Shown piece by piece: positions 2,358-44,983 of a stretch of 64,000 bases of DNA. The position numbers were made by a program, and so were the translations under genes. How positions within the stretch are numbered: the first letter of the stretch is position 1; each line of letters starts with the position of its first letter. Source of the stretch: Geobacter sp. (GTDB taxonomy: Bacteria > Desulfobacterota > Desulfuromonadia > Geobacterales > Geobacteraceae); the NCBI RefSeq assembly GCF_027327745.1, contig NZ_DAHVYG010000085.1, positions 20,465-84,464 of the forward strand, written 5' to 3'. The notes beneath the pieces are model-generated. The model worked only from the letters and a program-made list of their open reading frames with translations, was not told the origin of the DNA and did no database searches.

Positions 2358-3452
2358 ATGTCGAAGAGAATGAAGATCTGCATCAACACCGGCGGCGGCG
2401 ATGCGCCGGGCCTGAACGCGGTTATCGAGGCGGTCACCATGGCGGCCCACAACCGGCAATGGGAGGTGTACGGCATCAAGTGCGGCTATGCCGGCCTCCT
2501 GAACACCGACGAGATCATCCCCCTGACCCCGGAGAAGGTTGACGGCATCGCCAGCCTGGGGGGAACCATCCTGGGGACCACCAACAAGGGGAACCCCTTC
2601 ATGATGCCGGTTGCTAACGCTGCCGGCGAAACTGAACCGCGCGATCTGTCGGACCGGGTCATGGAAAACTTCCGCCGCCTCCGCTTTGATGCCCTTGTTG
2701 CCGTGGGGGGTGACGGAAGCCTCGAGATTGCCCACCGTTTCGCCGAAAAGGGGATGCCGGTGGTCGGCGTTCCCAAGACCATCGACAACGACATGGGGGG
2801 GACGGTCATTACCTTCGGTTTCGATACGGCGGTCAGCGTCGCCACCGAGGCCATCGACCGCCTCCACTCGACGGCCAAGTCTCACGACCGGGTCATGGTG
2901 GTTGAGGTCATGGGGCGCAATGCCGGCTTCATCGCCCTGAACAGCGGCATCTCCGGCAACGCGGACGTGATCCTGATTCCGGAGATACCGTTCGACATCG
3001 ACAAGGTCTGCGACAAGCTGATGGAGAACGAGCTCCACGGCCACCGGTATGCCATCGTGGTCGTGGCCGAAGGTGCGCTTCCCAAGGGGGGTGACGTGAT
3101 CGCCAAGGGCTCCGGCGAGGCCGGCCGCCAGCACGTGGTCCTGGGGGGGATCGCCGAGTACGTGGCCAGGGAGATCACCCAGCGCACCGGCAAGGATTCC
3201 CGCTCCATGGTCCTGGGCCATCTCCAGCGGGGGGGATCCCCTTCCACCTTCGACCGCCTCCTATCCCTGCGGTTCGGCGCGGCCGCGGTGCGGGCCATCG
3301 AGAATGGGCAATTCAACCACATGGTGGCGCTCCGGTCGCCGGACATCGTCATGGTCCCCCTCGGAGAGGCCCTGGGGATGCAGAAGCGTGTTCTCATCGA
3401 CGGCGATACGGTGCTGACGGCCCGTGATCTCGGGATCTGCTTCGGGGACTGA
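2358..3452 (+). CDS. pfkA: 6-phosphofructokinase
   Basis: Motifs INTGGGDAPGLNA, VGGDGS, PKTIDND and EVMGRNAG. AGGAG 5 nt upstream of ATG 2358 (the track starts at GTG 2352). Confidence 0.9.
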   Translation: MSKRMKICINTGGGDAPGLNAVIEAVTMAAHNRQWEVYGIKCGYAGLLNTDEIIPLTPEKVDGIASLGGTILGTTNKGNPFMMPVANAAGETEPRDLSDRVMENFRRLRFDALVAVGGDGSLEIAHRFAEKGMPVVGVPKTIDNDMGGTVITFGFDTAVSVATEAIDRLHSTAKSHDRVMVVEVMGRNAGFIALNSGISGNADVILIPEIPFDIDKVCDKLMENELHGHRYAIVVVAEGALPKGGDVIAKGSGEAGRQHVVLGGIAEYVAREITQRTGKDSRSMVLGHLQRGGSPSTFDRLLSLRFGAAAVRAIENGQFNHMVALRSPDIVMVPLGEALGMQKRVLIDGDTVLTARDLGICFGD

Positions 3453-3612
3453 AAGTGCGGCGGGCATGCTGAGCATGTTCATGCTGATTGTTATCAGGAT
3501 AGATGGAATGGCACAGTATACCGTGCCATAGTGCACCAAATGGAACAGTATAGTTGTCGTGCATTGCGGGGAACCGACCGAATCCATTACAGAGAACCGG
3601 AGGGGAAAGACC

Positions 3613-4109
3613 ATGGCGGATAAGAAAACGGGGGCACGGAAGATTTCCACAACCAGCACCAAGCAGGAGATGCTGGACGCGACATCCAGAACAAGCGGGA
3701 ACAGACCGAGAAGGAGTTCGCCGAGCGGGAGCAGGCCATCGCCAGGAGCGAAGCCGAGCTGAACGACCTCCGCCAGCGGGCCGCCTCATTCCCGCAGGAA
3801 CTGGAGGCCACGGTTACCCGCGAGGTTACGGCTGCTGTGGAGAAGGTCCGCCTTGAGTCCGACACCCGCCTGGAACTCCTCAAGAAGGAGTACGAAGGGG
3901 AGAGGAACGTCTTCCTCGCCCGGATCGCCGCCCTGGAGGGGAAGGTCAAGGAGCAGGCCGAGCAGGTGACGAAGATGAACGCCCAGTTGGAAAAGGCCTA
4001 CGGCCAGGTCCAGCAGATCGCGGTGAAGGCGGTGGAGGGATCCTCGGCCGTGAAGTCCCTCGGCGGGGGGCAGCAGTTCGGCGGCGATGCCGGGCGGGGA
4101 CAGGGGTAG
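3613..4109 (+). pseudogene. coiled-coil protein gene interrupted by a -1 frame change near 3678-3684 (true pseudogene or assembly indel)
   Basis: MADKKTGARKISTTSTKQEMLDA reads in frame 1 with a GGAGGGGAAAGA SD. The heptad-rich continuation IQNKREQTEKEFAEREQAIARSEAELNDLRQR...VEKVRLESD... runs in frame 0 into the listed ORF 3837..4109. Frame 0 has a TAA at 3621 and no ATG before 3837. Confidence 0.55.
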
Positions 4110-33546: not shown

Positions 33547-34338
33547 TTACCGGTACGCCGGCAGCCGGACCACCTGGCGCGGCCCCTGGATCTGCTCTTT
33601 CTCCGTGCGGCGCGGGTCACGGAACTCCACCTCCACGTGGTACTCGGGGGCCAGGAGATCGGGGCCACCCCGGTATTCGTCGGCAAAGTAGACGAGCCTC
33701 ACGTCGCGGATGTCGTAAGGCCTCTTTCCGCACTCGTCCCGCCGGGCAAGCCCCTCGCGCACCGCGCGCAACACGTCGTGCTCGCGCACCAGCTCCCGCT
33801 CCTCGAACACGTCCAACCCTTCCCAGAGCCCCACATGCATCATGACGGGACGCTCGGTTTCCTTGAAGATCATCCGGACCTTCCCCCGGGGCCCCACCAC
33901 CGGCACCCCGTTGAGGGCGATCTTCGACATGACGTCGGTCTTGGCTTTCACCAGCCGGCGCTCCTTGCCGTTGAAGACCACCGCCTCGGTCTGGAACGCC
34001 TCCAGGTCGAAATCGAGCCGGATCCGCTCGTCGCCCCCCTTCGGAGCCAGATCGAACTTCTTCAGCAGTTCGCCGGCCCAGCTCCGGGCCCGCGTCTCGC
34101 TCACCGGCTTCTCGGCGCACTCCCCCCAGGATACCGACTGATCGGCGAAGAAGAGGAGACCGGCAAAGGTGGCGCAGGGGCGGGCGAAGGCCAGGGAGCG
34201 GGTGCCATCGCCGATGAAGAGGGCTTCGTCGGTCTCAGCCGCCTTCCCCTTGAGGTTCAGGGAGGCGGCCAGTTTCGTGAAGATGTCGGGGGTCAGTCTT
34301 TTCGTCGTCCGCTTGTATAGAAAGATAGAATCGGCCAT
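33547..34338 (-). CDS. 263-aa hypothetical protein
   Basis: ORF with a GAGGAGGA SD, 15 nt after the upstream stop. No family recognised. Confidence 0.6.
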   Translation of the reverse strand: MADSIFLYKRTTKRLTPDIFTKLAASLNLKGKAAETDEALFIGDGTRSLAFARPCATFAGLLFFADQSVSWGECAEKPVSETRARSWAGELLKKFDLAPKGGDERIRLDFDLEAFQTEAVVFNGKERRLVKAKTDVMSKIALNGVPVVGPRGKVRMIFKETERPVMMHVGLWEGLDVFEERELVREHDVLRAVREGLARRDECGKRPYDIRDVRLVYFADEYRGGPDLLAPEYHVEVEFRDPRRTEKEQIQGPRQVVRLPAYR

Positions 34339-34353: not shown

Positions 34354-35139
34354 TCAGCAGGCGTGGGGGACCCACGTCCAACTGAACCAGTTGGCGGCTC
34401 CCCGGCGCGGGTCGGGGCTCACGTGTCCCCGGTCCCAGATGTAGTCGTTCTGGGTGTCGGTCCCCTGGGTGTTGGCGTAAAGGACCGCCGCCTCGTAGGG
34501 GGCCGGCTGGACCAGCGACGTCATGGCGAACCAGGCGTCGATCACCTTGAGGGGGATCCGGCCTATCATCCACTCGGGGATGCCGAAGATGACCGAGGGC
34601 CAGCGTCCGTCCAGGTATGCGGCGAAGTAGCGCCCGGGGGTCGCCAGATCGAGGCTCACGGTGGTGAAGGAGCAGATGGTGTGCATCCCCTGGAAAGCCT
34701 CGGCCCAGCGGTCGAAGACGTCGAGGTTGGTCCCCCCCAGGTTTGCGTCGAGCTGCAGGGTGTTGCAGACCTCCAGGGCGAGCCATTCGAGGTCGTCATA
34801 GCCGAGCCGCAAATCGCCGTTGGTGGGGCCGGAGTAGTGGTCGCACTCCACCAGGTTGTCGTCGGGGACATCGCAGCGGAAGTAGAATCCCCAGGGGCTG
34901 CCGTGCCCGGTGAAGTAGACGAAGTCCGCGGTGTCGACCCACTGGTCCGCGGTCCCCCCCTTGTCGGGGCGCTTGAAGTCCTGTTCCCAGGCGGCGCCGT
35001 TCCCCCAGTTGAAGGAACCGACCCAGCCATCGTGATTAACGAGTTCGTCGTAGAACCCCCCTGCATCCTCGTGCTCGTGGGTGAGCTGATTGAGGCAATC
35101 GTAGGTATTGACCCATTCGACGCCGACTTCCTTTGCCAT
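34354..35139 (-). CDS. 261-aa hypothetical protein with a gingipain/clan-CD-like His-Gly...Cys arrangement
   Basis: FVYFTGHGSPWGF then LEWLALEVCNT about 45 aa later. Compare gingipain INYTGHGSETAW ... LPFIFDVACVNG (from memory). GGAGGTG SD. Confidence 0.6.
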   Translation of the reverse strand: MAKEVGVEWVNTYDCLNQLTHEHEDAGGFYDELVNHDGWVGSFNWGNGAAWEQDFKRPDKGGTADQWVDTADFVYFTGHGSPWGFYFRCDVPDDNLVECDHYSGPTNGDLRLGYDDLEWLALEVCNTLQLDANLGGTNLDVFDRWAEAFQGMHTICSFTTVSLDLATPGRYFAAYLDGRWPSVIFGIPEWMIGRIPLKVIDAWFAMTSLVQPAPYEAAVLYANTQGTDTQNDYIWDRGHVSPDPRRGAANWFSWTWVPHAC

Positions 35140-35170: not shown

Positions 35171-37591
35171 TTACCCTTCCTCGCTCCTCAGGTCGTTGCA
35201 GATGCAGACCGCCCACGGCGACGACCAGGCGTGGTGGTAGCCGCCGTTCCAGCCGTCGCTCCAGGTCTTGTCCCGGGCGTAGAGCTGGAAGGTGTAGCCG
35301 CAGCATTCGCCCCGCTTGAGGGAGAAGCCGGCCGGGACCGTGTAATGCTCGGCCGCCGGGATCGACGGTGCGCAGACGGCGTCGAAGATCCGCAGGTCGA
35401 GGAGGGTGAGGAGCCCCGCCTGCCGTGCCGGGACGAGGGGAGGGGCCGGACAGCCGCCGACGGCCGGCAGCGGCTCGCACCTGACCCCCGGCTGGCCGAC
35501 CCGCTGGGTCCCCCGCAAAGGGTCGGTGCCGTAGGCGATGAAGTCGGGGGTGATCGGCACTACCAGCGTCGGCCCCCCCTGGCGGGTGATGGAGAGGGTG
35601 TAGTAGTCGAAGTTGTCGCTCGGGTAGGCCATGTCGGTCTCGTCGATGTACTCGTCATAGGCGATGCCGAAGAGCCCCCGGGGCCACGGCGCGCCGCACG
35701 GCGCCCCCCCCGGCACGAACTGGGAGAGCTTCAGGTCGGAGCAGCCGGGAAGCCCCTCGATGCCGGTGAAGGCGACGTGGACGTCGTTCTGCATCGGCTT
35801 GTTGTCGAACCAGACCTGCTGGGTGTCGTAAAAGAGGTTGCCGAGGGTGTCCTCCACCTGGAGCAGCAGGGTGTACTTGCCGCTGCGGCAGCGGTGGTGC
35901 GGATCGGGGCAGCCGCTCCCGTCGTTCACCCCCACCGGCAGGAGGCCGGCGCTGTTGAAGCAGAAATCCTGGAGCTTCCAGACCTTGAACTTCGAGCCGA
36001 GGAATTCCACCTCGGTCTCCACGAAATGGGTCGTGAGCGCCCGCTCGATGACCTGGTTCCACTGGGCCCGTTTCCAGAGCTCCACCGTGGGGTTCGGGTC
36101 GGGGTAGCAGACCGGGCCGTAGGGGAAGAGGAGCGATCCGGTGTAGTCGGCCGGATTGAAGCCGAGCTCTCCCGGGCCGGGGAGCCAGCCGAGGCCGAAG
36201 CGGAGATCGAAGCACTTGATCTTGCGGTTGTTGCACTCGCCCACGAAGGCACTCCCCTTGACGGTTACGCAGCCACCGACCGGCACGACCACCCCGCCGG
36301 GATTGCCGCTGACGATGGGGGCGGTGGAGACGAAGGGTCCGGGCGGGGTCTGCACCGGGGCGTTGGCCAGCCGGTCGATCCAGACCAGGCGCTTGAAGAG
36401 GCTGAACTGGATGCAGGTGCAGCAGCGCGGGACCCCCGGGAGGGCGGAGTAGACGCAGAGCCGGATTTCGTAGGAGCCGGCCGGCAGCGCCGTGGTGTCG
36501 AGCCAGCCGAGGGTGCCGGCCACCACCGGCGCGGTGCCGGTGGCGCCACTGCCGGGATAGCTGATGCCGGTTGCCTGCCAGCCGGTGTCATCGGCGCAGG
36601 GTGCCCCCTCAACCTTGCGCCATTCCAGGGTGTAGTGGTCGAATCCGCCGCCGGTGGCGGTGCCGTCGATCTCTACCACGAGCCCGCCGCCGTTCGGGTT
36701 GGGGAACTCCTCGGTGCACCCGGTCGGCTTCGTGAGGAGGCAGGTGAGCGGCTGGAGGCAGCGGCGCAGGCAGCGGAAGTAGTCGATCAGGCAGCGGACC
36801 AGGTCGAAGAACGTGCGGGAGCGAGCGAGGCACCAGCCGAAGCGGAAGGCGCAGAGGCACCAGCAGCGGCAGAACCAGAAGGCGCGCTCCTGGCGGAGCT
36901 TCTCGAAGAGCTCGGCGCCGAGGAGGAACCGGGCGTTCTCGACGGTCATGAACCGCTCGAAGAGGGACTCGGCCTCGCCGGCTCCGGCGTGGCAGTCGAT
37001 TTTTCCCGCCACCGCCTCGTCAGCCAGCTCGCCGGCCCGCTCGGCGGCCCGGGCCTCCCGTTCCAGGGAGGGCTTGAAGACGGCGGCGAAGGCGCCGACC
37101 AGGCTGCGGAAGTCGGCGCGCTCCGCGGCGGTGAGGGGGCGGCTCCCGATGGAGTCGTCGAACAGCCGGCGGATGCAGAGCCAGTAGCGGTAGAGGTAAT
37201 AGACGGCGGCGGGGAAGGTGCGGGCGCGGGAGAGGAGCCAGCCGAAGCGGAGGCAGCAGAGGATTTTCCGCAGGCACCAGCGCCACTGGTCGATGGGGCC
37301 GAGGAGCTCCAGCGCCTTCGGGTCCAGGAGCCGCAGGGCCACCTTCTCGTCCCCCAAGGGGGCGAAGATTCGGTCGGCCATGAGCTGCTCGTCCTCGCAG
37401 GTGTGGGGGTGCTTTTCCGTCTCCTCCAGGAGCCGCTCCGCCGACCTGATCAGGGCGAGGTCTTCTTCGAGGATCGGGCGATAGGCGTTCAGGAGTTCCT
37501 GCAGGACGAAGAGGAAATCCTCCCGTTTCACATCCTCGGGAAGCTGGCTTGCAATGAGCTTTTCAACGGTTTCCTTGGGTGCTTTTGCCAT
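35171..37591 (-). CDS. 806-aa Cys/Trp-rich protein: helical N-terminal third with two W/C/R-rich duplicated segments, beta-rich Cys-rich remainder
   Basis: AAAGGAGA SD. Duplicated segments at aa 103-143 and 238-279. 'HYTLEW' and 'DYYTLSI' beta-sandwich-like motifs. No signal peptide. Confidence 0.7.
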   Translation of the reverse strand: MAKAPKETVEKLIASQLPEDVKREDFLFVLQELLNAYRPILEEDLALIRSAERLLEETEKHPHTCEDEQLMADRIFAPLGDEKVALRLLDPKALELLGPIDQWRWCLRKILCCLRFGWLLSRARTFPAAVYYLYRYWLCIRRLFDDSIGSRPLTAAERADFRSLVGAFAAVFKPSLEREARAAERAGELADEAVAGKIDCHAGAGEAESLFERFMTVENARFLLGAELFEKLRQERAFWFCRCWCLCAFRFGWCLARSRTFFDLVRCLIDYFRCLRRCLQPLTCLLTKPTGCTEEFPNPNGGGLVVEIDGTATGGGFDHYTLEWRKVEGAPCADDTGWQATGISYPGSGATGTAPVVAGTLGWLDTTALPAGSYEIRLCVYSALPGVPRCCTCIQFSLFKRLVWIDRLANAPVQTPPGPFVSTAPIVSGNPGGVVVPVGGCVTVKGSAFVGECNNRKIKCFDLRFGLGWLPGPGELGFNPADYTGSLLFPYGPVCYPDPNPTVELWKRAQWNQVIERALTTHFVETEVEFLGSKFKVWKLQDFCFNSAGLLPVGVNDGSGCPDPHHRCRSGKYTLLLQVEDTLGNLFYDTQQVWFDNKPMQNDVHVAFTGIEGLPGCSDLKLSQFVPGGAPCGAPWPRGLFGIAYDEYIDETDMAYPSDNFDYYTLSITRQGGPTLVVPITPDFIAYGTDPLRGTQRVGQPGVRCEPLPAVGGCPAPPLVPARQAGLLTLLDLRIFDAVCAPSIPAAEHYTVPAGFSLKRGECCGYTFQLYARDKTWSDGWNGGYHHAWSSPWAVCICNDLRSEEG

Positions 37592-37655: not shown

Positions 37656-38465
37656 TTACGCGAACCGCAGGTACCGCGTCGCTACCCACTGCTGCTCCGA
37701 CGGATGGATGCGGCACCACCCGTCGGCCGTCTCGAAGACGTTCACCCTCACCCCCCGCGCCAGGCTCTTCACGATGGGGAACGACGCCCCTCGGCCGCTC
37801 CGCACGTTGAGCGTCGTGGCGATGACATCCGCCGCCCCGTTGGCCTGCGGCGGAGTGGGGGCAACCCCTCCCGTCAGGGTGGCAAGGGTCCGGGCGACGA
37901 GCGGGACGAAGTTGGCCGCCGCCGAGTCGACCGAGTTTCCGCCGAAGAACGCGCTCCCCGGGCACGATTTCGTCGTCCCGCTCCCGCCGGTCCGCTGGCC
38001 GGAGTTCAGGTCGTACCAGTGGTGGAAGACGATGGTGTCGGTGGAGGGGGTGAGGTGGAACTCGCGGCAGAGGAGGGCGTTGATCTTGACGATGGCGTCG
38101 CGGTGGGCGGGGGTCATGCTGTTCCCCCCGCCATCGAAGTTGCCGAGGTTCTCCAGGCAGATCCCCTCCTGGTTGGCCCCCTTGATCCCCGCCGGCACCT
38201 TGTCGATGGAGCGGCAGAGCGCCACCGTGCCGTCGGGGAAGGAGGTGAGGTTCTGGGCGATCTCCGCGAACCCCCGTTCGGCCATGTGGAAATGCTCCAT
38301 CCCGTTGAGGAGCGCGAAGTGGTTGCCGCCGTCGAACTGGGCGTAAGAGGGCTGGAAGGTGTGGTGGTTCTGGACGAGTTTCACCGAGCGGCTGAAGCGG
38401 GTCTGCTGCAGCCACTGGTCGAACTCGTCGATGGTGAAGAGGACGAACTTCCCCTTTTTCTGCAT
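37656..38465 (-). CDS. N-acetylmuramoyl-L-alanine amidase (Amidase_2/PGRP fold) with a C-terminal SH3b domain; no signal peptide
   Basis: VQNHHT...FHHWYD...KSCPG amidase_2-type pattern. C-terminal ATTLNVRSGRGASFPIVKSLARGVRVNVFETADGWCRI SH3b. GGGAGGG SD before ATG 38465. Confidence 0.75.
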   Translation of the reverse strand: MQKKGKFVLFTIDEFDQWLQQTRFSRSVKLVQNHHTFQPSYAQFDGGNHFALLNGMEHFHMAERGFAEIAQNLTSFPDGTVALCRSIDKVPAGIKGANQEGICLENLGNFDGGGNSMTPAHRDAIVKINALLCREFHLTPSTDTIVFHHWYDLNSGQRTGGSGTTKSCPGSAFFGGNSVDSAAANFVPLVARTLATLTGGVAPTPPQANGAADVIATTLNVRSGRGASFPIVKSLARGVRVNVFETADGWCRIHPSEQQWVATRYLRFA

Positions 38466-38488
38466 GATTCCCTCCCGGAACGTCATTG

Positions 38489-38527: not shown

Positions 38528-39364
38528 TCAGATGGTGAACGGCTTCTGCTTCAGGAACGCCGGATCGGGAGCCCCGACCATGAAGAGGTTCGGGGTCTGG
38601 TCGGGGGGCATCCGGCGGACGATGTTGCGGTGGAAGGTCCGGTAGTTCCCCCGGAAGAGGCTGTCCTTCCAGACCTGCAGGAGCTGGCTCGTGAAGAGGC
38701 CGTTGAAGGCGCCGTCCTGGGAGAGTTGGTTGTCCTGGCAGCCGGAGATGAGAAGCACCGATGCCTTCGGGTCGGGCTGGGAATCTTTGGGGGTTTTCCC
38801 CTGCTGGAGACCGTCGTAGAACGCCTTGTTGGCGCGGTAGGTGCGCAACGCCGCGTCGACGGGCATGGCCCGGTAGCGGACCTGCCCCCCTTCGTCGGCG
38901 GTGGCCCGGGCGGCGGTGGTGCCGGTGAAGTAGGCCATCTTGGTGACGGTGCCGCTGTGGCAGCTGTCGGAGAAGACCAGGATCCGCACGCCGGCGGCGA
39001 ACTGGCCGAAGAGGGCGTAGAGTTCGTCGTCGATCAGCTGGCCGTCGTAGAGGCACCAGGTCTCGTCCTGGCCGTCCGGTTCGTCGCTGCTTCGGTCGGG
39101 AACCTGTCCCCCGTGCCCCGAGTAGCTCAGCATGAAGATATCGCCCGCCTTGAGGTCGTGGGCCGCCTTTTTGATTCCGTCGACCACATGGGCGCGGGTC
39201 GCCGCCTTGGTCAGGAGCGGCGAGCAGATGAACTCCCGCGACCTGGCGATGGCGGTCATGTCCTCGGCGTCCGCCTCGCAGGCGTTGAGCTTGCCCGACC
39301 ACCCTCCGTAGTGGTTCGGGTCGACGGCGTTGAGTCCGATGGTGAGTGCGAGTCCTTTTGCCAT
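38528..39364 (-). CDS. caspase-family (C14) cysteine peptidase, stand-alone domain
   Basis: Catalytic dyad motifs FMLSYSGHGG and VFSDSCHSG. 278 aa. AAAGGAGGA SD. Confidence 0.9.
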   Translation of the reverse strand: MAKGLALTIGLNAVDPNHYGGWSGKLNACEADAEDMTAIARSREFICSPLLTKAATRAHVVDGIKKAAHDLKAGDIFMLSYSGHGGQVPDRSSDEPDGQDETWCLYDGQLIDDELYALFGQFAAGVRILVFSDSCHSGTVTKMAYFTGTTAARATADEGGQVRYRAMPVDAALRTYRANKAFYDGLQQGKTPKDSQPDPKASVLLISGCQDNQLSQDGAFNGLFTSQLLQVWKDSLFRGNYRTFHRNIVRRMPPDQTPNLFMVGAPDPAFLKQKPFTI

Positions 39365-39388: not shown

Positions 39389-40180
39389 CTACCCTTTCAG
39401 GATTTCCGCCAGTTCCGCGATGAGCTTCGCGAAATCCTCCCGCTCCAGGAGCCTGCGGAAGTGGGCCGGTTCGCGGATTCCGGGGGAGAGCCGGGCGCCC
39501 CTGCCGGTGCGGAGATCTACGATCTCCTCGATGATCTCACGGAAGTGGGCCGGTTCGCGGACGCCGGGGACGAACCCGAGGCTCTCGCGCCGGGACACCG
39601 CCACCCGTTCCGCCAGCTTGAGGTCGGTGTAGACCTCGTCGATGGCGGCGATGAGGATCTCCTCTTCCTTGGCCAGGGCGATGCCGGCGTCGAACCAGTG
39701 GGCCGGCTCGCGGATGCCGGGATTAAGCTGGGCGAGCTCTTCGGCGACCGCCGGTTGGACCGTCACGGTCTGGAAGTTCCTGAAGTGGGCCGGCTCGATC
39801 CAGTCGGCCTTGAGCTTGAGCTTCAGGGCCTCGTGCCAGAGGAGGAAGAGGGAGTAACTGCCGGCAGCGACCTTCCCCGCGCTCTTGCCGGTGATCTCCT
39901 TCAGCACCGGGGCGAACTCCTTCTCGAAGAGGGTCCCCTGGAGGTTCTTCCCCCCCAGTTCGGCCCGGGCGATCTTGCCTCCCTCGGCGATGTCGAGGTT
40001 CAGCGGGAGGGTAGTGGTGACCACAAAGCCGATCTGCCGGGAGACCCGGTCGAAGACCGTGTCGGCCTTTTCCTGGATCGAATTCTTGAGGAAGCGGTAG
40101 ATTTCGACGAGGTCGTCGAAGCGCTGCACGAGCACCGGGTGGGCCGGTTCGACCCAGTCACGAATCTTGGTTTTTGCCAT
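39389..40180 (-). CDS. 263-aa Cys-free protein with five E-P-A-H repeats (novel repeat protein)
   Basis: EPAH at aa 11, 129, 158, 209 and 237. Contexts: DWVEPAHP, DWIEPAHF, PGIREPAHW, PGVREPAHF, PGIREPAHF. GGGAGGAA SD. Confidence 0.75.
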   Translation of the reverse strand: MAKTKIRDWVEPAHPVLVQRFDDLVEIYRFLKNSIQEKADTVFDRVSRQIGFVVTTTLPLNLDIAEGGKIARAELGGKNLQGTLFEKEFAPVLKEITGKSAGKVAAGSYSLFLLWHEALKLKLKADWIEPAHFRNFQTVTVQPAVAEELAQLNPGIREPAHWFDAGIALAKEEEILIAAIDEVYTDLKLAERVAVSRRESLGFVPGVREPAHFREIIEEIVDLRTGRGARLSPGIREPAHFRRLLEREDFAKLIAELAEILKG

Positions 40181-40301
40181 TGCCCTGTTCCTCCCTGAAC
40201 ATGCGATGTGATTAAACGATTAATTCCGATGGTGTCGTCGGCTGGTTATCCCTTCACGGCGTCACCCCCTCCCGGTGGCAATCCACGCAGATCCATATCT
40301 C

Positions 40302-42065
40302 TCATGGCGCCGTGGCGTCCTTTCCCTCACCGAGCCGCTTCCTGAATTCGGCGTAGGGGATCGGCGTCCGGAGTGCGCCGAAGAATCCGAGCCCCACCGG
40401 GTCGGCGTCGCCTCGGGCAAGGCTCTCGATGCCGGCGTAGGGGACCGCTTCTCCCCTGAACAGTGAGATCCCGGGCTGATCCAGGTCGGGGTCCGTCCGG
40501 GGATGACCCGCGTCCCGCTCGGCCCATGCCCGCCGCAACCGCTCCAGGATCCGCTCGCCCCGGCCCCGCAGCTCGACACCGCCGTCGTCCACCCGCTGGC
40601 GCATGACCCGCATGGCGGCGCGGACCGCCTCCCCCTCCTCCGGGTCGATCGACTGGACGATGTCCCAGATCCGGGAGAGGCAGCGGTAGGTGTCGATGTT
40701 GGTCTCCTTGATGAACGAGCGGACCTCGCTCCTGATCTCCTGGGAGAGAAGCTCGGGGTGGAAGCGGCGCAGGAGCTGGAAGGAGAAGTCGACCTCCATG
40801 TTGAAGTAGTGGAGGCCGTAGTCGTTGAAGTTGCGATCGAAGAAGGCGTAGTTGGCGATCTTGTGGAACGCCTCCACCTGCGGCTCCTTGATCCGGTAGT
40901 CGAAGCCGAAGTAGTCGCCGCTGATGATCCCGTCGTTCCGGAGCTTCTTCTCCAGCCCCGTGGCGGCGTAGGCCTCGGCCCGGCAGAAGTTGAACGGGTT
41001 GTCGATGTGCCGCTCCATGAACCGGAGGTTGATCAGCAGATCGTCCATGGTGGCGTCGGGCTCGAACATGAGGAGGTTGTACGCCACGTGGACGTCGAAG
41101 TCGTTCAAGATCCGGAGGGCGTTTTCGATCGCTTCCCGGGTGCACTTGCGGTTGAGGTTCCTCAGCCCCCGCTCCGACGCGTTTTCCACCCCGAGGAAGA
41201 CCCGGAAGACACCGAGGTCGTCCAGGACCCCCATCGCCTCCCGGTTGATGGAGTCGGGGCGGGCCTTGACCGCGATGGCGATCTCCTTCACCCCCTCCTT
41301 CCAGAGGGAGTCGCGCAGCTCGGTGAAGCGGGCCAGGGCCTGCGTCGGCTCCGGGAGGAAGAAGTTGTCGTCCTGGAAGTTGAAGATCCGCACGCCGTGG
41401 CCGTGGTAGAGCTCCTTCATCTCGGCCACGATGTTCGGGACGCTCCGGATCCGGAACTTGCGCCCGCCCCCCGAGCGGTACCAGGCGTCGATGCTGCAGA
41501 AGGCGCAACTGCGCCAGCACCCCCGCGAGGAGAGGATGCTTGCGATCGGTTTGCCGTAATACTCGTGGAAGGTGGTGCGACGGGGGAAGGGGAGAGCGTC
41601 GAGGTCCTCCGGGTTTCCGCGCGACGGGTTCACCGCGATGGAGCCGTCCCCCCGCCGGTAGGAGAAACCGGCAAGTTCCGGGAGATCGGCGGGGTTCGTT
41701 GCGAGGGCACAGATCAGCTCCTCCCCTTCGCCGAGGGCGATGGAGTCGAACTCCGGGAAGTCGGCCAGGAGCTGTCGGCAGTTCAGGGCCGCGAAGTGGC
41801 CGCCGGCGGTGAGGTGGCCGCAGAAGCCTCCTTCCCGCAGGGCCTTTGCCAGACGGCAGAACTCCCGGGCCCTGCCGGTGAAGACCATGGAGAGGCCGGC
41901 GATGTCGGGGGCGAAGGCGTTCACCTGCCGGACCACGGCCGGGATCTCCCCCTTCTCGTTGAAGGGGAAGATGACCGCCAGGTGTCCCTCCCGTTCCAGG
42001 GCCGATGCCATGTAGCGGAGTCCCAGGTTCTCTTCGAGCTCCGCGCCGATAAGAGCAATTTTCAT
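40302..42065 (-). CDS. B12-binding-domain radical SAM enzyme (class B)
   Basis: N-terminal Rossmann-like cobalamin-binding region (MKIALIGAE...GLSMVF...GGHFA). Radical SAM cluster motif SSRGCWRSCAFCS (Cx3Cx2C). GGGGAGGAAG SD before ATG 42065. The 695-aa track ORF is a 5' extension. Confidence 0.9.
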   Translation of the reverse strand: MKIALIGAELEENLGLRYMASALEREGHLAVIFPFNEKGEIPAVVRQVNAFAPDIAGLSMVFTGRAREFCRLAKALREGGFCGHLTAGGHFAALNCRQLLADFPEFDSIALGEGEELICALATNPADLPELAGFSYRRGDGSIAVNPSRGNPEDLDALPFPRRTTFHEYYGKPIASILSSRGCWRSCAFCSIDAWYRSGGGRKFRIRSVPNIVAEMKELYHGHGVRIFNFQDDNFFLPEPTQALARFTELRDSLWKEGVKEIAIAVKARPDSINREAMGVLDDLGVFRVFLGVENASERGLRNLNRKCTREAIENALRILNDFDVHVAYNLLMFEPDATMDDLLINLRFMERHIDNPFNFCRAEAYAATGLEKKLRNDGIISGDYFGFDYRIKEPQVEAFHKIANYAFFDRNFNDYGLHYFNMEVDFSFQLLRRFHPELLSQEIRSEVRSFIKETNIDTYRCLSRIWDIVQSIDPEEGEAVRAAMRVMRQRVDDGGVELRGRGERILERLRRAWAERDAGHPRTDPDLDQPGISLFRGEAVPYAGIESLARGDADPVGLGFFGALRTPIPYAEFRKRLGEGKDATAP

Positions 42066-42501
42066 CCACTTCCTCCCCGTGATCCGGCCGCCGGAAAAAC
42101 GGGGCCGTCTGCGGTACCGTTGACCGCGTTCGCTTCTCTGCGTCACCTCGTGTAGGCGGCATTGCCAATGAGAAAACATCCGATGCCCAGGACGGCGGAC
42201 GGGGGAAGGGGCTGACTGGTGTGGCGGCGTGCAGCGGGCCGCCGGATGCGGGAAGAGAGGTGCGCCTTCCCTGGCGCCTTCTGCCGCACGATGCGGCAGT
42301 GGGGCCCGTCCTGGGCCACAATTAGTTGTTGGGCGGCATTGTGCAGCGGTAGCCTGGGATGAGTATATCGTGCAAAGCGATTGCGACAAGTCGCGAATCG
42401 AATAATTTCTTCATGTTACAAAAAACGTCACGCGGAGCCGGCGTGCCGTTCTTGTGTTAGAATTGAAACAGCCGTCCAATTGCCAAAGAGGAGGGGAGCC
42501 G

Positions 42502-42845: not shown

Positions 42846-43325
42846 TCAGGTCACCGCCACGTCGGCTTTTCCTTCCCAGTAGCCGTGAAGGTTGCAGCGC
42901 TGGCGGGCGATGAGGGTCACCTTCCCCGCCGGGGCGGCGTCTTTCGGGATCACGACGGTGAAGGTCACCTTAGGGTTCAGGAAGCCGCGGGGCTGGAAAT
43001 CGGCTCTCCCCGCCGGCTCGTTGCCGACGTTGAGCTCCACGAACTCGATCCAGTGGGTGGGCCCCATGGGGTGGATCACCTCGCCGACCGACACCTCCAC
43101 GGTGAACGGCTCCCCCGCCTTCACCTTTGCCGGGGTCCTGATCACCGGCACGTGCTTCTGCTCCAGCGGGTTCTTCTTCGCCGGGTCCTTCGCCCGGTTG
43201 ATGGTGACAAAGAGCGACTGGTCGGCCTTGACCGGGAAGTACATCTCGGCCGCAGTGACGGTTCGGGCGACGCCGGCGGCCGCGGCGCCGAGGGCGGCGT
43301 GCTTGAGAAAGGCTCTTCTGTCCAT
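42846..43325 (-). CDS. Tat-exported desulfoferrodoxin/superoxide-reductase-like protein
   Basis: Twin-arginine signal MDRRAFLKHAALGAAAAG. SOR centre-II ligand pattern QKHVP, IHPMGPTHW (H-x5-H) and CNLHG (C-x2-H). Confidence 0.75.
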   Translation of the reverse strand: MDRRAFLKHAALGAAAAGVARTVTAAEMYFPVKADQSLFVTINRAKDPAKKNPLEQKHVPVIRTPAKVKAGEPFTVEVSVGEVIHPMGPTHWIEFVELNVGNEPAGRADFQPRGFLNPKVTFTVVIPKDAAPAGKVTLIARQRCNLHGYWEGKADVAVT

Positions 43326-43451
43326 TGCTCCTCCCGTGGTACCATGATGTGTTGCCGGAGGGGGGCCTCCGCGCACATTCTTCAAGTGTAGAATCCTCCG
43401 TTCCAAAGTCAATGAGCGAATCCTCATCCCCGAACGGCGGGGGGGAAAGAT

Positions 43452-44093
43452 TTGCGTGCCGTGTCAACCGACGGCGGCGTGCGCGCGTTTCAGCTATCAA
43501 AAGCGTCTTGCGGCCCATGCCGGGGACGGGACACGAGGAGAGAATCCCTGGAGAATACCGAGGCACTGAACCGATTCCTGGCGGGAATCGAGCGGCGGGC
43601 GTTCCGGATGGCCCGGTTTGCCACCGCCGACGATGACGAAGCCCTCGACCTCGTGCAGGATGCGATGCTCGGCTTTGTCCGGCGCTATGCGTGCAAGTGC
43701 GAGGAGGAGTGGTCTCCCCTGTTCTACCGCACGCTCCAGAGCCGGATCATCGACTGGCACCGCCGCACGGTGGTCCGCAACCGGCTGCGCGGCTGGTTCG
43801 GCGGCGCCGGCGGCGACTCGGACGAGGGGGCCGATCCGCTGGAGAACGTGGCGGACGTCAACGCCCCCGATCCCGGACGGCATCTGACGAACCGGGAGCT
43901 CGGGGGGGCGATCGAAAGGGCCCTCCGGAAGCTTCCGCTGCGCCAGCGCCAGGCGTTTTTGCTTCGTTCGTGGGAAGGGCTCGACGTGGCCCAGACCGCT
44001 TTGGCCATGGGGTGCAGCGACGGCAGCGTCAAGACCCACTACTCGCGGGCGGTCCACACCCTGCGGCACCTTTTGAAGGAGTACCGATCATGA
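43452..44093 (+). CDS. ECF (RpoE-like) RNA polymerase sigma factor; start uncertain
   Basis: Region 2 (DLVQDAMLGFVRRY...FYRTLQSRIIDWHRR) and region 4 (RQRQAFLLRSWEGLDVAQTALAMGCSDGSVKTHYSRA). There is no in-frame ATG near the expected N-terminus. Confidence 0.8.
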   Translation: MRAVSTDGGVRAFQLSKASCGPCRGRDTRRESLENTEALNRFLAGIERRAFRMARFATADDDEALDLVQDAMLGFVRRYACKCEEEWSPLFYRTLQSRIIDWHRRTVVRNRLRGWFGGAGGDSDEGADPLENVADVNAPDPGRHLTNRELGGAIERALRKLPLRQRQAFLLRSWEGLDVAQTALAMGCSDGSVKTHYSRAVHTLRHLLKEYRS

Positions 44094-44449: not shown

Positions 44450-44488
44450 AGCCGCAATGAAATGGGAATGGGTGAAAGGGAAAACGCG

Positions 44489-44983
44489 ATGACGAGACGA
44501 CGACTGCTGGTGGCGATCCTCTTGCTGGCGGCGACCGCTCCGCCGGCGTGGGGCGAATCGGGCCCGACGCCGTGGAGCCGGCTCACTCCCGAGGAGCAGC
44601 AGGTCCTCCAGCCGATGCGCGAACGGTGGGATACGCTCCCCCCCGAGCGCCAGGAACGGCTCCGTCGCGGGGTGGAGCGGTGGCGGACCATGACCCCGGA
44701 GGAACAGAAAGAGGCCCGCGAACGGTTCCAGCGGTGGCGGGAACTCCCCCCCGAGCAACGGGAGCAGATCCGTCGCCGGTTCAGGGAGTTTCGCAACCTC
44801 CCTCCGGAGGAGCAGGAGCGGATCAGGCGCAAGTTTCAGTGGTTCCGGGAGCTTCCCCCCGCCGAGCGCCATGCCCTTCGGGAAAAATGGCGCGGCATGA
44901 GCCGGGAGGAGCGCCACGAACTGCGGGAACGATGGAAGACCATGACCCCCGAGGAGAAAAGGGATTTCCTCGAAAAAAAATAG
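44489..44983 (+). CDS. DUF3106-like secreted repeat protein
   Basis: Signal peptide, then repeated W..L.PEEQ/R..RF..W motifs (RWDTLPPERQERLRR, RWRTMTPEEQKEARERFQRWRELPPEQRE...). Confidence 0.65.
   Translation: MTRRRLLVAILLLAATAPPAWGESGPTPWSRLTPEEQQVLQPMRERWDTLPPERQERLRRGVERWRTMTPEEQKEARERFQRWRELPPEQREQIRRRFREFRNLPPEEQERIRRKFQWFRELPPAERHALREKWRGMSREERHELRERWKTMTPEEKRDFLEKK

Follow-up and report, generated by a model that had tools for sequence, protein, structure and literature searches.

A window of 64,000 nucleotides (64 kb) from a Geobacter sp. contig (NZ_DAHVYG010000085.1) contains a gene whose 263-residue product carries the tetrapeptide Glu-Pro-Ala-His (EPAH) five times. What is such a protein for, and are its repeats more than an accident of this lineage? 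An original prediction, made from the letters of the window, regarded the repeats as a conserved functional feature and linked the protein both to an adjacent caspase and to a nearby radical S-adenosylmethionine (SAM) enzyme. The analysis presented here indicates that the EPAH motif is the hallmark of a protein family of Bacteria and Archaea, and that the gene travels with the radical-SAM gene directly upstream.

The EPAH motif and its family

A word count over the window bore out the five motifs and their predicted coordinates. The plus-strand sequence GTGGGCCGGYTC occurs five times in the whole 64 kb (39461, 39545, 39698, 39785, and 40139), every time within the gene, and EPAH is found at residues 11, 129, 158, 209, and 237 of the product, against an expectation by composition alone of 0.003 per protein. 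As proposed, the copies fall into two subtypes, DW(V/I)EPAH and PG(I/V)REPAH(F/W). The absence of Cys that had been noted is real and extends to 148 of 190 homologues. The protein has an isoelectric point of 6.1 and a maximum Kyte–Doolittle value of 0.96, and searches of it for a membrane segment or a signal peptide found neither. Since it has no hydrophobic segment, and given its isoelectric point, it is probably soluble and cytoplasmic.

We then asked how far the motif extends. A homologue search of 5.8 billion proteins returned 514 homologues at 90% clustering, none of which has a name or a Pfam domain. When 1.84 billion representatives were searched exhaustively with a profile, the result was 183 clusters at 50%, all belonging to the same family, and no distant relatives of other architecture. 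One apparent fusion, of a membrane protein to the C-terminal half of an EPAH protein (P0326), looks like a chimera or a frameshift. Family members are 210 to 480 residues long. The repeats were to be considered accidental if homologues lacked the EPAH periodicity; what we found is E-P-x-H in every protein across 190–242 homologues, with x being Ala in ∼92–95% of cases and otherwise mostly Val or Pro. This retention of the motif supports the functional importance originally assigned to it. The logo of the motif, from 872 instances in 190 proteins, is [P/R][G/D/E][W/V/I][R/V/M/I/Q]-E-P-[A 95%, V 5%]-H-[F/P/W/Y][R/F]. E, P, and H are essentially invariant, with 833 instances of EPAH against three of DPAH and one of EFAH. 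In the same proteins, the motif holds 63% of all His residues, and Arg precedes the E in 39% of the copies.

Copy number is the variable part. Motifs 1 to 3 are invariant in the two alignments, which have 30 and 92 members, while the C-terminal PG(V/I)REPAHF units number between zero and six. Among the 120 closest homologues, the exact EPAH count is 3–9 per protein; when A/V/Q variants are counted, copies of EPxH go from 3 up to at least 12–14 in longer members, as in P0241, with its tandem WPG(T/I)REPAHY units, and in a Methanosarcinales homologue. Gain and loss of repeat units are real on the time scale of the family: the number of C-terminal copies varies, and tandem units of 10–20 residues occur in some homologues.

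Position 3 of the motif shifts in concert within a protein. All four copies are EPPH in a homologue from a Terriglobia metagenome-assembled genome (MAG) (L045), and archaeal homologues (L066 and L008 from Methanoperedens, L077 from Methanosarcinales) display runs of EPVH. Pairs of copies with the same variant number 74 within proteins, versus 10 expected, and none of 2,000 shuffles reached 74. Such concerted change would fit either a single partner that reads all the copies, with coevolution between motif and enzyme, or homogenization by duplication. Since position 3 tolerates A, V, and P, Ala is unlikely to be the functional atom, which would make His, Pro, or Glu the likelier target.

AlphaFold2, run with 92 sequences, produced a model with a mean predicted local distance difference test (pLDDT) score of 75, whose numbering is that of the protein minus 1. 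The predicted architecture consists of a folded N-terminal α/β domain and a helical hairpin, joined and trailed by flexible linkers in which the motif reads [P/R][G/D/E][W/V/I][R/V/M/I/Q]-E-P-(A/V/P)-H-[F/W/P/Y]. The N-terminal domain (helix, helix, strand, strand, helix, strand, helix) is modeled at pLDDT mostly >90. Invariant residues in the 92-member alignment include F42, D43, G50, T55, P58, F84, W114, and A117 in this domain and D180, L188, and R196 in the hairpin, where I179, V182, Y183, L186, and R191 are conserved in at least 90% of members. Residues 45–125, originally described as β-rich, are modeled as mixed α/β, with three strands and two helices. Similarly, of the acidic helix predicted after every motif, the helix is modeled soon after four of the five, whereas only the segment following motif 3 is clearly acidic: net charges over the 20 residues C-terminal to motifs 1 to 5 are 0, −1, −4, 0, and −1. 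Four of the five motifs (2 to 5) sit in low-confidence linkers between confidently folded elements and would therefore be accessible. The fold of the N-terminal domain has no significant match in the PDB by Foldseek. A likeness to the C-terminal domain of TonB/TolA was dismissed as nonsignificant (best E 0.3, probability 0.47, TM score on the target 0.46). The whole protein gave no PDB match in a profile search and no match in Pfam, NCBIfam, PADLOC, or PHROGs.

Conservation of the motif had also been predicted for the nucleotides. It holds for the gene in the window, where all five copies read CCG-GCC-CAC, but not for the family: in eight homologous genes, from genomes of 44–69% GC, synonymous codons differ between copies and between genomes. 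Since homologues vary these codons freely, selection acts on the protein or peptide, and the identical codons seen here reflect codon bias plus a local effect; a constraint on the nucleotides themselves, such as a DNA or RNA element, was rejected on the same grounds. By our own arithmetic from the codon usage of neighboring genes, a single copy would be CCG-GCC-CAC with P = 0.25 and all five with P ∼ 0.001, or ∼0.004 given the first copy, which is a modest excess. The reported 21-nt identity between 39457–39477 and 39541–39561, 84 nt apart, is genuine and becomes 22 nt (39456–39477) when reread from the repeat alignment. Its attribution to recent duplication or gene conversion did not survive, since the two 84-nt units are only 50% identical (42 of 84 positions) and unrelated outside the ∼30 nt coding for PG(I/V)REPAHFR, which led us to reject a recent duplication of the whole unit. 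At the identical residues of the two units, 8 of 10 codons match, versus ∼5 expected from summed per-residue match probabilities. Amino acid selection together with codon bias accounts for most of the nucleotide identity. Five copies with identical codons, two of them sharing a 22-nt run, might still be taken as a functionless, lineage-specific product of recent duplication or gene conversion. Comparison with homologues refutes this notion, which we consider hardly credible: the motif is invariant across several bacterial and archaeal phyla despite free synonymous variation, and the identity between units ends at the borders of the motif.

A two-gene module with a radical-SAM enzyme

Is there a partner that could read these motifs? 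In 10 of 10 metagenome or genome places that were inspected (Geoalkalibacter, Geobacter hydrogenophilus, other Desulfobacterota, an Acidobacteriota MAG, a Methanoperedens-labeled MAG, and unassigned metagenome contigs), the same radical-SAM gene as in the window is adjacent to the EPAH gene and co-oriented with it, while all other neighbors differ. A scan of 185,579 GTDB species genomes yielded 65 loci, which include Geobacterales, Desulfuromonadales, Syntrophobacterales, Syntrophorhabdales, and many Acidobacteriota, the archaeal Bathyarchaeota, Methanoperedens, ANME-2, and Methanosarcinales, and also Anaerolineae, Brocadia, Nitrospinae, and Chlorobium MAGs. By tblastn, the enzyme is adjacent and co-oriented in 59 of the 65, which gives the predicted link to the radical-SAM enzyme strong backing from synteny.

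Six loci depart from this pattern. In Geomobilimonas luticola (L018), a gene for a 398-residue lipoprotein-like hydrolase (2646–3842) lies between the two genes, which are still co-oriented, and in an ANME-2 locus (L047) the order is reversed, with the EPAH gene first, although the two remain adjacent and co-oriented. One locus is at a contig end (L079) and another is a match to a 30-residue fragment (L081). Only L024 (1802–2290) and L074 (4004–4570) have full context and no radical-SAM gene, and in both the EPAH gene is truncated, one product being 162 residues long and stopping at motif 3 and the other missing its first ∼44 residues. This suggests that the EPAH gene decays once separated from the enzyme.

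Clustering of flanking open reading frames (ORFs) over 64 loci revealed no third conserved gene family, the next best being present in four loci. The enzyme is more conserved (mean identity 63–72%, mean column identity 72%) than its partner (46%), and Geobacter and archaeal enzyme sequences are ∼60% identical. In five other loci the spacer between the genes is 17–86 nt, again with GGAGG; in scans for promoters and terminators around the pair, the counts did not surpass those from shuffles. Taken together, these comparisons indicate that the EPAH gene and the B12 radical-SAM gene directly upstream are a self-contained two-gene module, inherited and transferred together.

Two features of individual loci deserve mention. 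In the Methanoperedens-labeled MAG (L008, 4924–10274), the pair is flanked by two more radical-SAM genes (348 and 352 residues, with Cys-rich C termini) and by two paralogous 69-residue ORFs, which may form a separate peptide-modification cluster beside the module. A radical-SAM gene resembling those two, of 363 residues, recurs in four GTDB loci. In two loci from the same ENA study (L003, 8171–9915; L005, 5094–6918), the radical-SAM gene is called as two ORFs, of 402 and 185 and of 345 and 275 residues, respectively; these are probably assembly frameshifts and not real split genes.

The partner is a genuine class B radical-SAM enzyme, as judged by its Pfam domains (Radical_SAM, E 1e-16; B12-binding PF02310, the N-terminal Rossmann-type cobalamin-binding domain, E 1.5e-11), by a CX3CX2C motif (C183-W-R-S-C187-A-F-C190) invariant in 48 homologues, and by an AlphaFold2 model (predicted template modeling score 0.77) that Foldseek matches to OxsB, TsrM, MgmA/QCMT, CysS, and TokK with E values of 1e-13 to 6.5e-20. 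For its C-terminal 200 residues, the model shows a long bundle of helices and then a disordered tail ending in a conserved PIPY segment. None of the NCBIfam equivalogs compared (BchE, HpnR, HpnJ, ApyD, QCMT/MJ_0865, and rSAM_ocin_1) reaches its curated cut-off, the best score being 96.5 bits for BchE versus a cut-off of 481. The best sequence match in the PDB is 9CCB (MgmA/QCMT; E 4e-9), the glutamine C-methyltransferase of methyl-coenzyme M reductase and hence a protein-modifying enzyme (PMC12931638). The start of the gene needs care, since the longest ORF begins at TTG 42389 (695 residues), whereas all homologues begin at the methionine of MK(I/V)ALIGAELEENLG, here ATG 42065, preceded by GGGGAGGAAG. 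A gene called automatically could therefore come out 108 codons too long (42066..42389).

The caspase and other neighbors

The coordinates of the module and its surroundings are listed in Table 1. Although the caspase gene lies only 24 nt from the EPAH gene in the window, we rejected on synteny the idea that the EPAH protein is a caspase substrate. None of the 81 related loci that were fetched contains the caspase (by tblastn), the Amidase_2/SH3 protein, or DUF6345, and the G. hydrogenophilus locus has no caspase. On this comparison, the predicted caspase link falls away and the caspase is a window-specific neighbor, not a conserved partner. Only in this window are the EPAH gene and the Cys-rich gene separated by the caspase and the amidase. 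Set against the G. hydrogenophilus locus, these two genes look as if they had been inserted as a pair; there is no clear change in GC composition at the insert.

Within the 806-residue Cys-rich protein, a segment rich in Cys and Trp occurs twice, as WRWCLRKILCCLRFGWLLSRARTF and as FWFCRCWCLCAFRFGWCLARSRTF. A homologue that is 67% identical is encoded directly downstream of the EPAH gene in G. hydrogenophilus (L016, 10892–13297) and another is found in L023, so that this protein accompanies the module in close relatives only. In the same G. hydrogenophilus locus, a desulfoferrodoxin and a sigma factor are encoded at the corresponding position, an arrangement that puts the window within or close to the Geobacteraceae.

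Table 1. Positions of the EPAH module, its parts, and neighboring genes in the window (aa, amino acids)
Feature	Coordinates	Strand	Remarks
263-aa protein next after DUF6345 gene	33547..34338	(-)	absent from related loci
DUF6345 protein	34354..35139	(-)	E 9e-61
806-aa Cys-rich protein	35171..37591	(-)	no Pfam, NCBIfam, or PHROGs match
Amidase_2 + SH3 protein	37656..38486	(-)	between caspase and Cys-rich gene
Caspase-like C14 peptidase	38528..39364	(-)	start 24 nt downstream of EPAH stop codon; weak PADLOC "caspase" match, E 1e-10
EPAH-repeat protein gene	39389..40180	(-)	263 aa; ORF and translation
EPAH motif 5 (aa 237-240, PGIREPAHFR)	39461..39472	(-)	28 codons past motif 4; missing in 242-aa homologues, multiplied in others
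EPAH motif 4 (aa 209-212, PGVREPAHFR)	39545..39556	(-)	opens variable C-terminal repeat zone
Helical hairpin (aa 171-201, EEEILIAAIDEVY..LKLAERVA)	39578..39670	(-)	conserved; AlphaFold2 pLDDT ~90
EPAH motif 3 (aa 158-161, PGIREPAHWFDAG)	39698..39709	(-)	most conserved copy: EPAHW invariant, F and D at least 90%; low pLDDT
EPAH motif 2 (aa 129-132, DWIEPAH)	39785..39796	(-)	C-terminal edge of N-terminal domain; E, P, H invariant; pLDDT <50
N-terminal alpha/beta domain (aa 15-128)	39797..40138	(-)	AlphaFold2 pLDDT mostly >90
EPAH motif 1 (aa 11-14, DWVEPAH)	40139..40150	(-)	immediately N-terminal to helix 1 of N-terminal domain; invariant in 92 aligned homologues; pLDDT ~85
Spacer between radical-SAM gene and EPAH gene	40181..40301	(-)	121 nt; GGAGG ribosome-binding site 8 nt before ATG
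B12-binding (class B) radical-SAM enzyme, conserved partner	40302..42065	(-)	587 aa; Pfam B12-binding + Radical_SAM; start common to homologues
Desulfoferrodoxin	42846..43427	(-)	upstream of module
Extracytoplasmic function (ECF)-type sigma factor	43452..44093	(+)	upstream of module
DUF3106 repeat protein	44462..44983	(+)	upstream of module

Possible functions and known systems

What might the pair do? The reading that we favor, with no more than moderate confidence, is that the EPAH protein serves the radical-SAM enzyme as a dedicated multi-site substrate. Its folded N-terminal domain would dock it to the enzyme, which would modify one residue in or beside each EPxH motif, probably the His, Pro, or Glu rather than the A/V/P-tolerant position 3. 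By analogy with other class B enzymes, cobalamin-mediated C-methylation would be the default chemistry, and the product would remain a modified intracellular protein instead of an exported peptide. This proposal draws on the invariance of the motif, its location in accessible linkers, the linkage to the enzyme, the correlated pairwise identities of enzyme and partner, the concerted change at position 3, the class of the enzyme and its best PDB sequence match to a protein-modifying enzyme, and the precedent of radical-SAM enzymes that act on repeated precursor motifs, such as TVGG in TvgA and TIGSVS in TigB (PMC10878394). Several points weigh against it. Synteny speaks for a partnership only and is silent on which protein acts on which, and the correlation between pairwise identities of enzyme and partner (r = 0.83, reached by none of 2,000 permutations in this Mantel-type comparison) partly reflects shared phylogeny. 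The clustering of position-3 variants within proteins could also stem from tandem duplication or gene conversion. The partner is large, with a highly conserved folded domain, unlike typical precursors of ribosomally synthesized and posttranslationally modified peptides (RiPPs). No peptide-binding domain of the RiPP recognition element (RRE) type is evident in the enzyme, as judged from Pfam on its C-terminal 199 residues and an all-helical model of that region, with no RRE-dedicated search. Finally, the NCBIfam families that come closest to the enzyme by score are small-molecule enzymes (BchE at 96 bits, HpnR, and HpnJ), all far below their cut-offs, so that the substrate could conceivably be a small molecule, for which the EPAH protein would be the carrier or scaffold.

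That last point leads to the idea that the EPAH protein is not a substrate at all and is instead an accessory, either presenting a small and perhaps hydrophobic substrate, as a carrier, scaffold, or chaperone, or handling metal or cobalamin with Glu and His as ligands. Each motif offers one His and one Glu, and together the motifs hold most of the His in the family. Metallochaperone tails typically have His-bearing repeats of variable length, which the EPAH repeats resemble. A folded, strongly conserved N-terminal domain, a module without protease or exporter, and an enzyme whose best family scores are for BchE, HpnR, and HpnJ, which act on small molecules, would all suit such a role. Nevertheless, a ligand has no obvious need for an invariant Pro, a fixed E-P-x-H spacing, or conserved hydrophobic flanks; the protein matches no family known to bind metals or cofactors; the motifs, placed in flexible linkers, form no predicted site; and the scores for BchE and the other families are far below threshold. 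We rate an accessory role as rather unlikely, though worth keeping in view. Less probable still is a multi-core RiPP precursor, in which the enzyme would modify each PG(I/V)REPAHF unit and a protease would free small peptides, here the adjacent C14 caspase, which might cut, for example, behind the Arg in front of EPAH. The repeated motif is core-like and variable in number (3 to 12–14 EPxH), that Arg is found in 39% of the copies, the caspase gene begins 24 nt past the EPAH stop codon, and assorted peptidase genes occur near some other loci. Yet caspase and amidase are found in 0 of 81 related loci, no protease or transporter family recurs over 64 loci, and the peptidases nearby belong to unrelated families at different positions. 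Moreover, the DW(V/I/M)EPAH subtype has no basic residue before the E, and three motifs flank or lie within conserved folded parts. Far from being a short unstructured peptide, the protein has 263 residues (210–480 in the family), with a confidently folded 115-residue domain and a helical hairpin, and no leader of the NHLP/Nif11 type was found by Pfam and NCBIfam at E up to 0.01, nor, with the N-terminal half, any relevant match when E was relaxed to 10. We consider this scenario improbable.

Literature searches on the EPAH, REPAH, and EPxH motifs, on their pairing with radical-SAM genes, and on cobalamin radical-SAM enzymes with histidine or repeat precursors returned no description of the family or the pair. 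The protein family and the enzyme clade alike are undescribed and taxonomically broad. Returning to the multi-site substrate, we tentatively propose, as a possibility that falls short of probable, that the pair represents an unrecognized posttranslational system of bacteria and archaea, in which iterative modification of His, Pro, or Glu in 3–14 EPxH motifs of a dedicated folded cytoplasmic protein, by a chemistry new for class B enzymes, would give a poly-modified protein with a new function, for instance metal-, redox-, or cofactor-like. For more than half of radical-SAM classes, no function has been validated (PMC12931638), and the usual obstacle is the substrate; here, an orphan and highly conserved B12 clade has a candidate substrate next door. 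Because evolution has marked the target motif and there are no further genes to reconstitute, the chemistry could be tested with two proteins or with a 12-mer peptide; the short motif peptides named beside the full-length protein are PGIREPAHFRRL and KADWIEPAHFRN. The focus of experiments thereby shifts to the radical-SAM enzyme and away from the caspase. Should His, Pro, or Glu be modified at unactivated carbons of a full-size protein, both the protein modification and the enzyme activity would be new, and a function would be at hand for a gene pair that is widespread among anaerobic microbes of soil, peat, and sediment (Acidobacteriota, Geobacterales, Bathyarchaeota, and Methanoperedens).

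How does the module compare with systems already known? The TvgA/TvgB and TigB/TigE pairs (PMC10878394) similarly place a radical-SAM enzyme beside a ribosomal product with a conserved motif in variable repeat number, each repeat being a modification site there and a putative one here. Their enzymes, however, are radical-SAM/SPASM cyclopropyl synthases that do not bind B12, and their precursors are short peptides in RiPP clusters, whereas the EPAH partner is a protein of 210–480 residues with a folded domain, an EPxH motif, and no other cluster genes. MgmA/QCMT (9CCB) and Mmp10 are class B enzymes that C-methylate a full-size protein, methyl-coenzyme M reductase, and not an exported peptide. 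MgmA is only ∼16% identical in sequence to the window enzyme, which scores 57 bits on the NCBIfam QCMT family versus a cut-off of 360, and both MgmA and Mmp10 modify one site in an enzyme subunit, while the EPAH partner is a dedicated protein with 3–14 candidate sites. In the proteusin system of polytheonamide, the precursor PoyA is handled by the B12 radical-SAM C-methyltransferases PoyB and PoyC. The EPAH protein would share two features with proteusin-type precursors, namely a large recognition region at the N terminus and, behind it, a stretch with many positions modified by a B12 radical-SAM enzyme; the EPAH module differs in having no NHLP/Nif11 leader, epimerase, dehydratase, protease, or exporter, in having one motif that precedes the folded domain, and in an enzyme score of 62 bits on TIGR03975 (cut-off 282). 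BchE, HpnR, and HpnJ give the enzyme its top NCBIfam scores (96, 77, and 76 bits) and have the same B12-binding plus radical-SAM architecture, but their cut-offs of 481–650 bits are far above, they act on tetrapyrroles or hopanoids, and they have no partner gene of the EPAH type. The module thus resembles both the repeat-motif radical-SAM systems and protein modification by MgmA and Mmp10, but belongs to neither.

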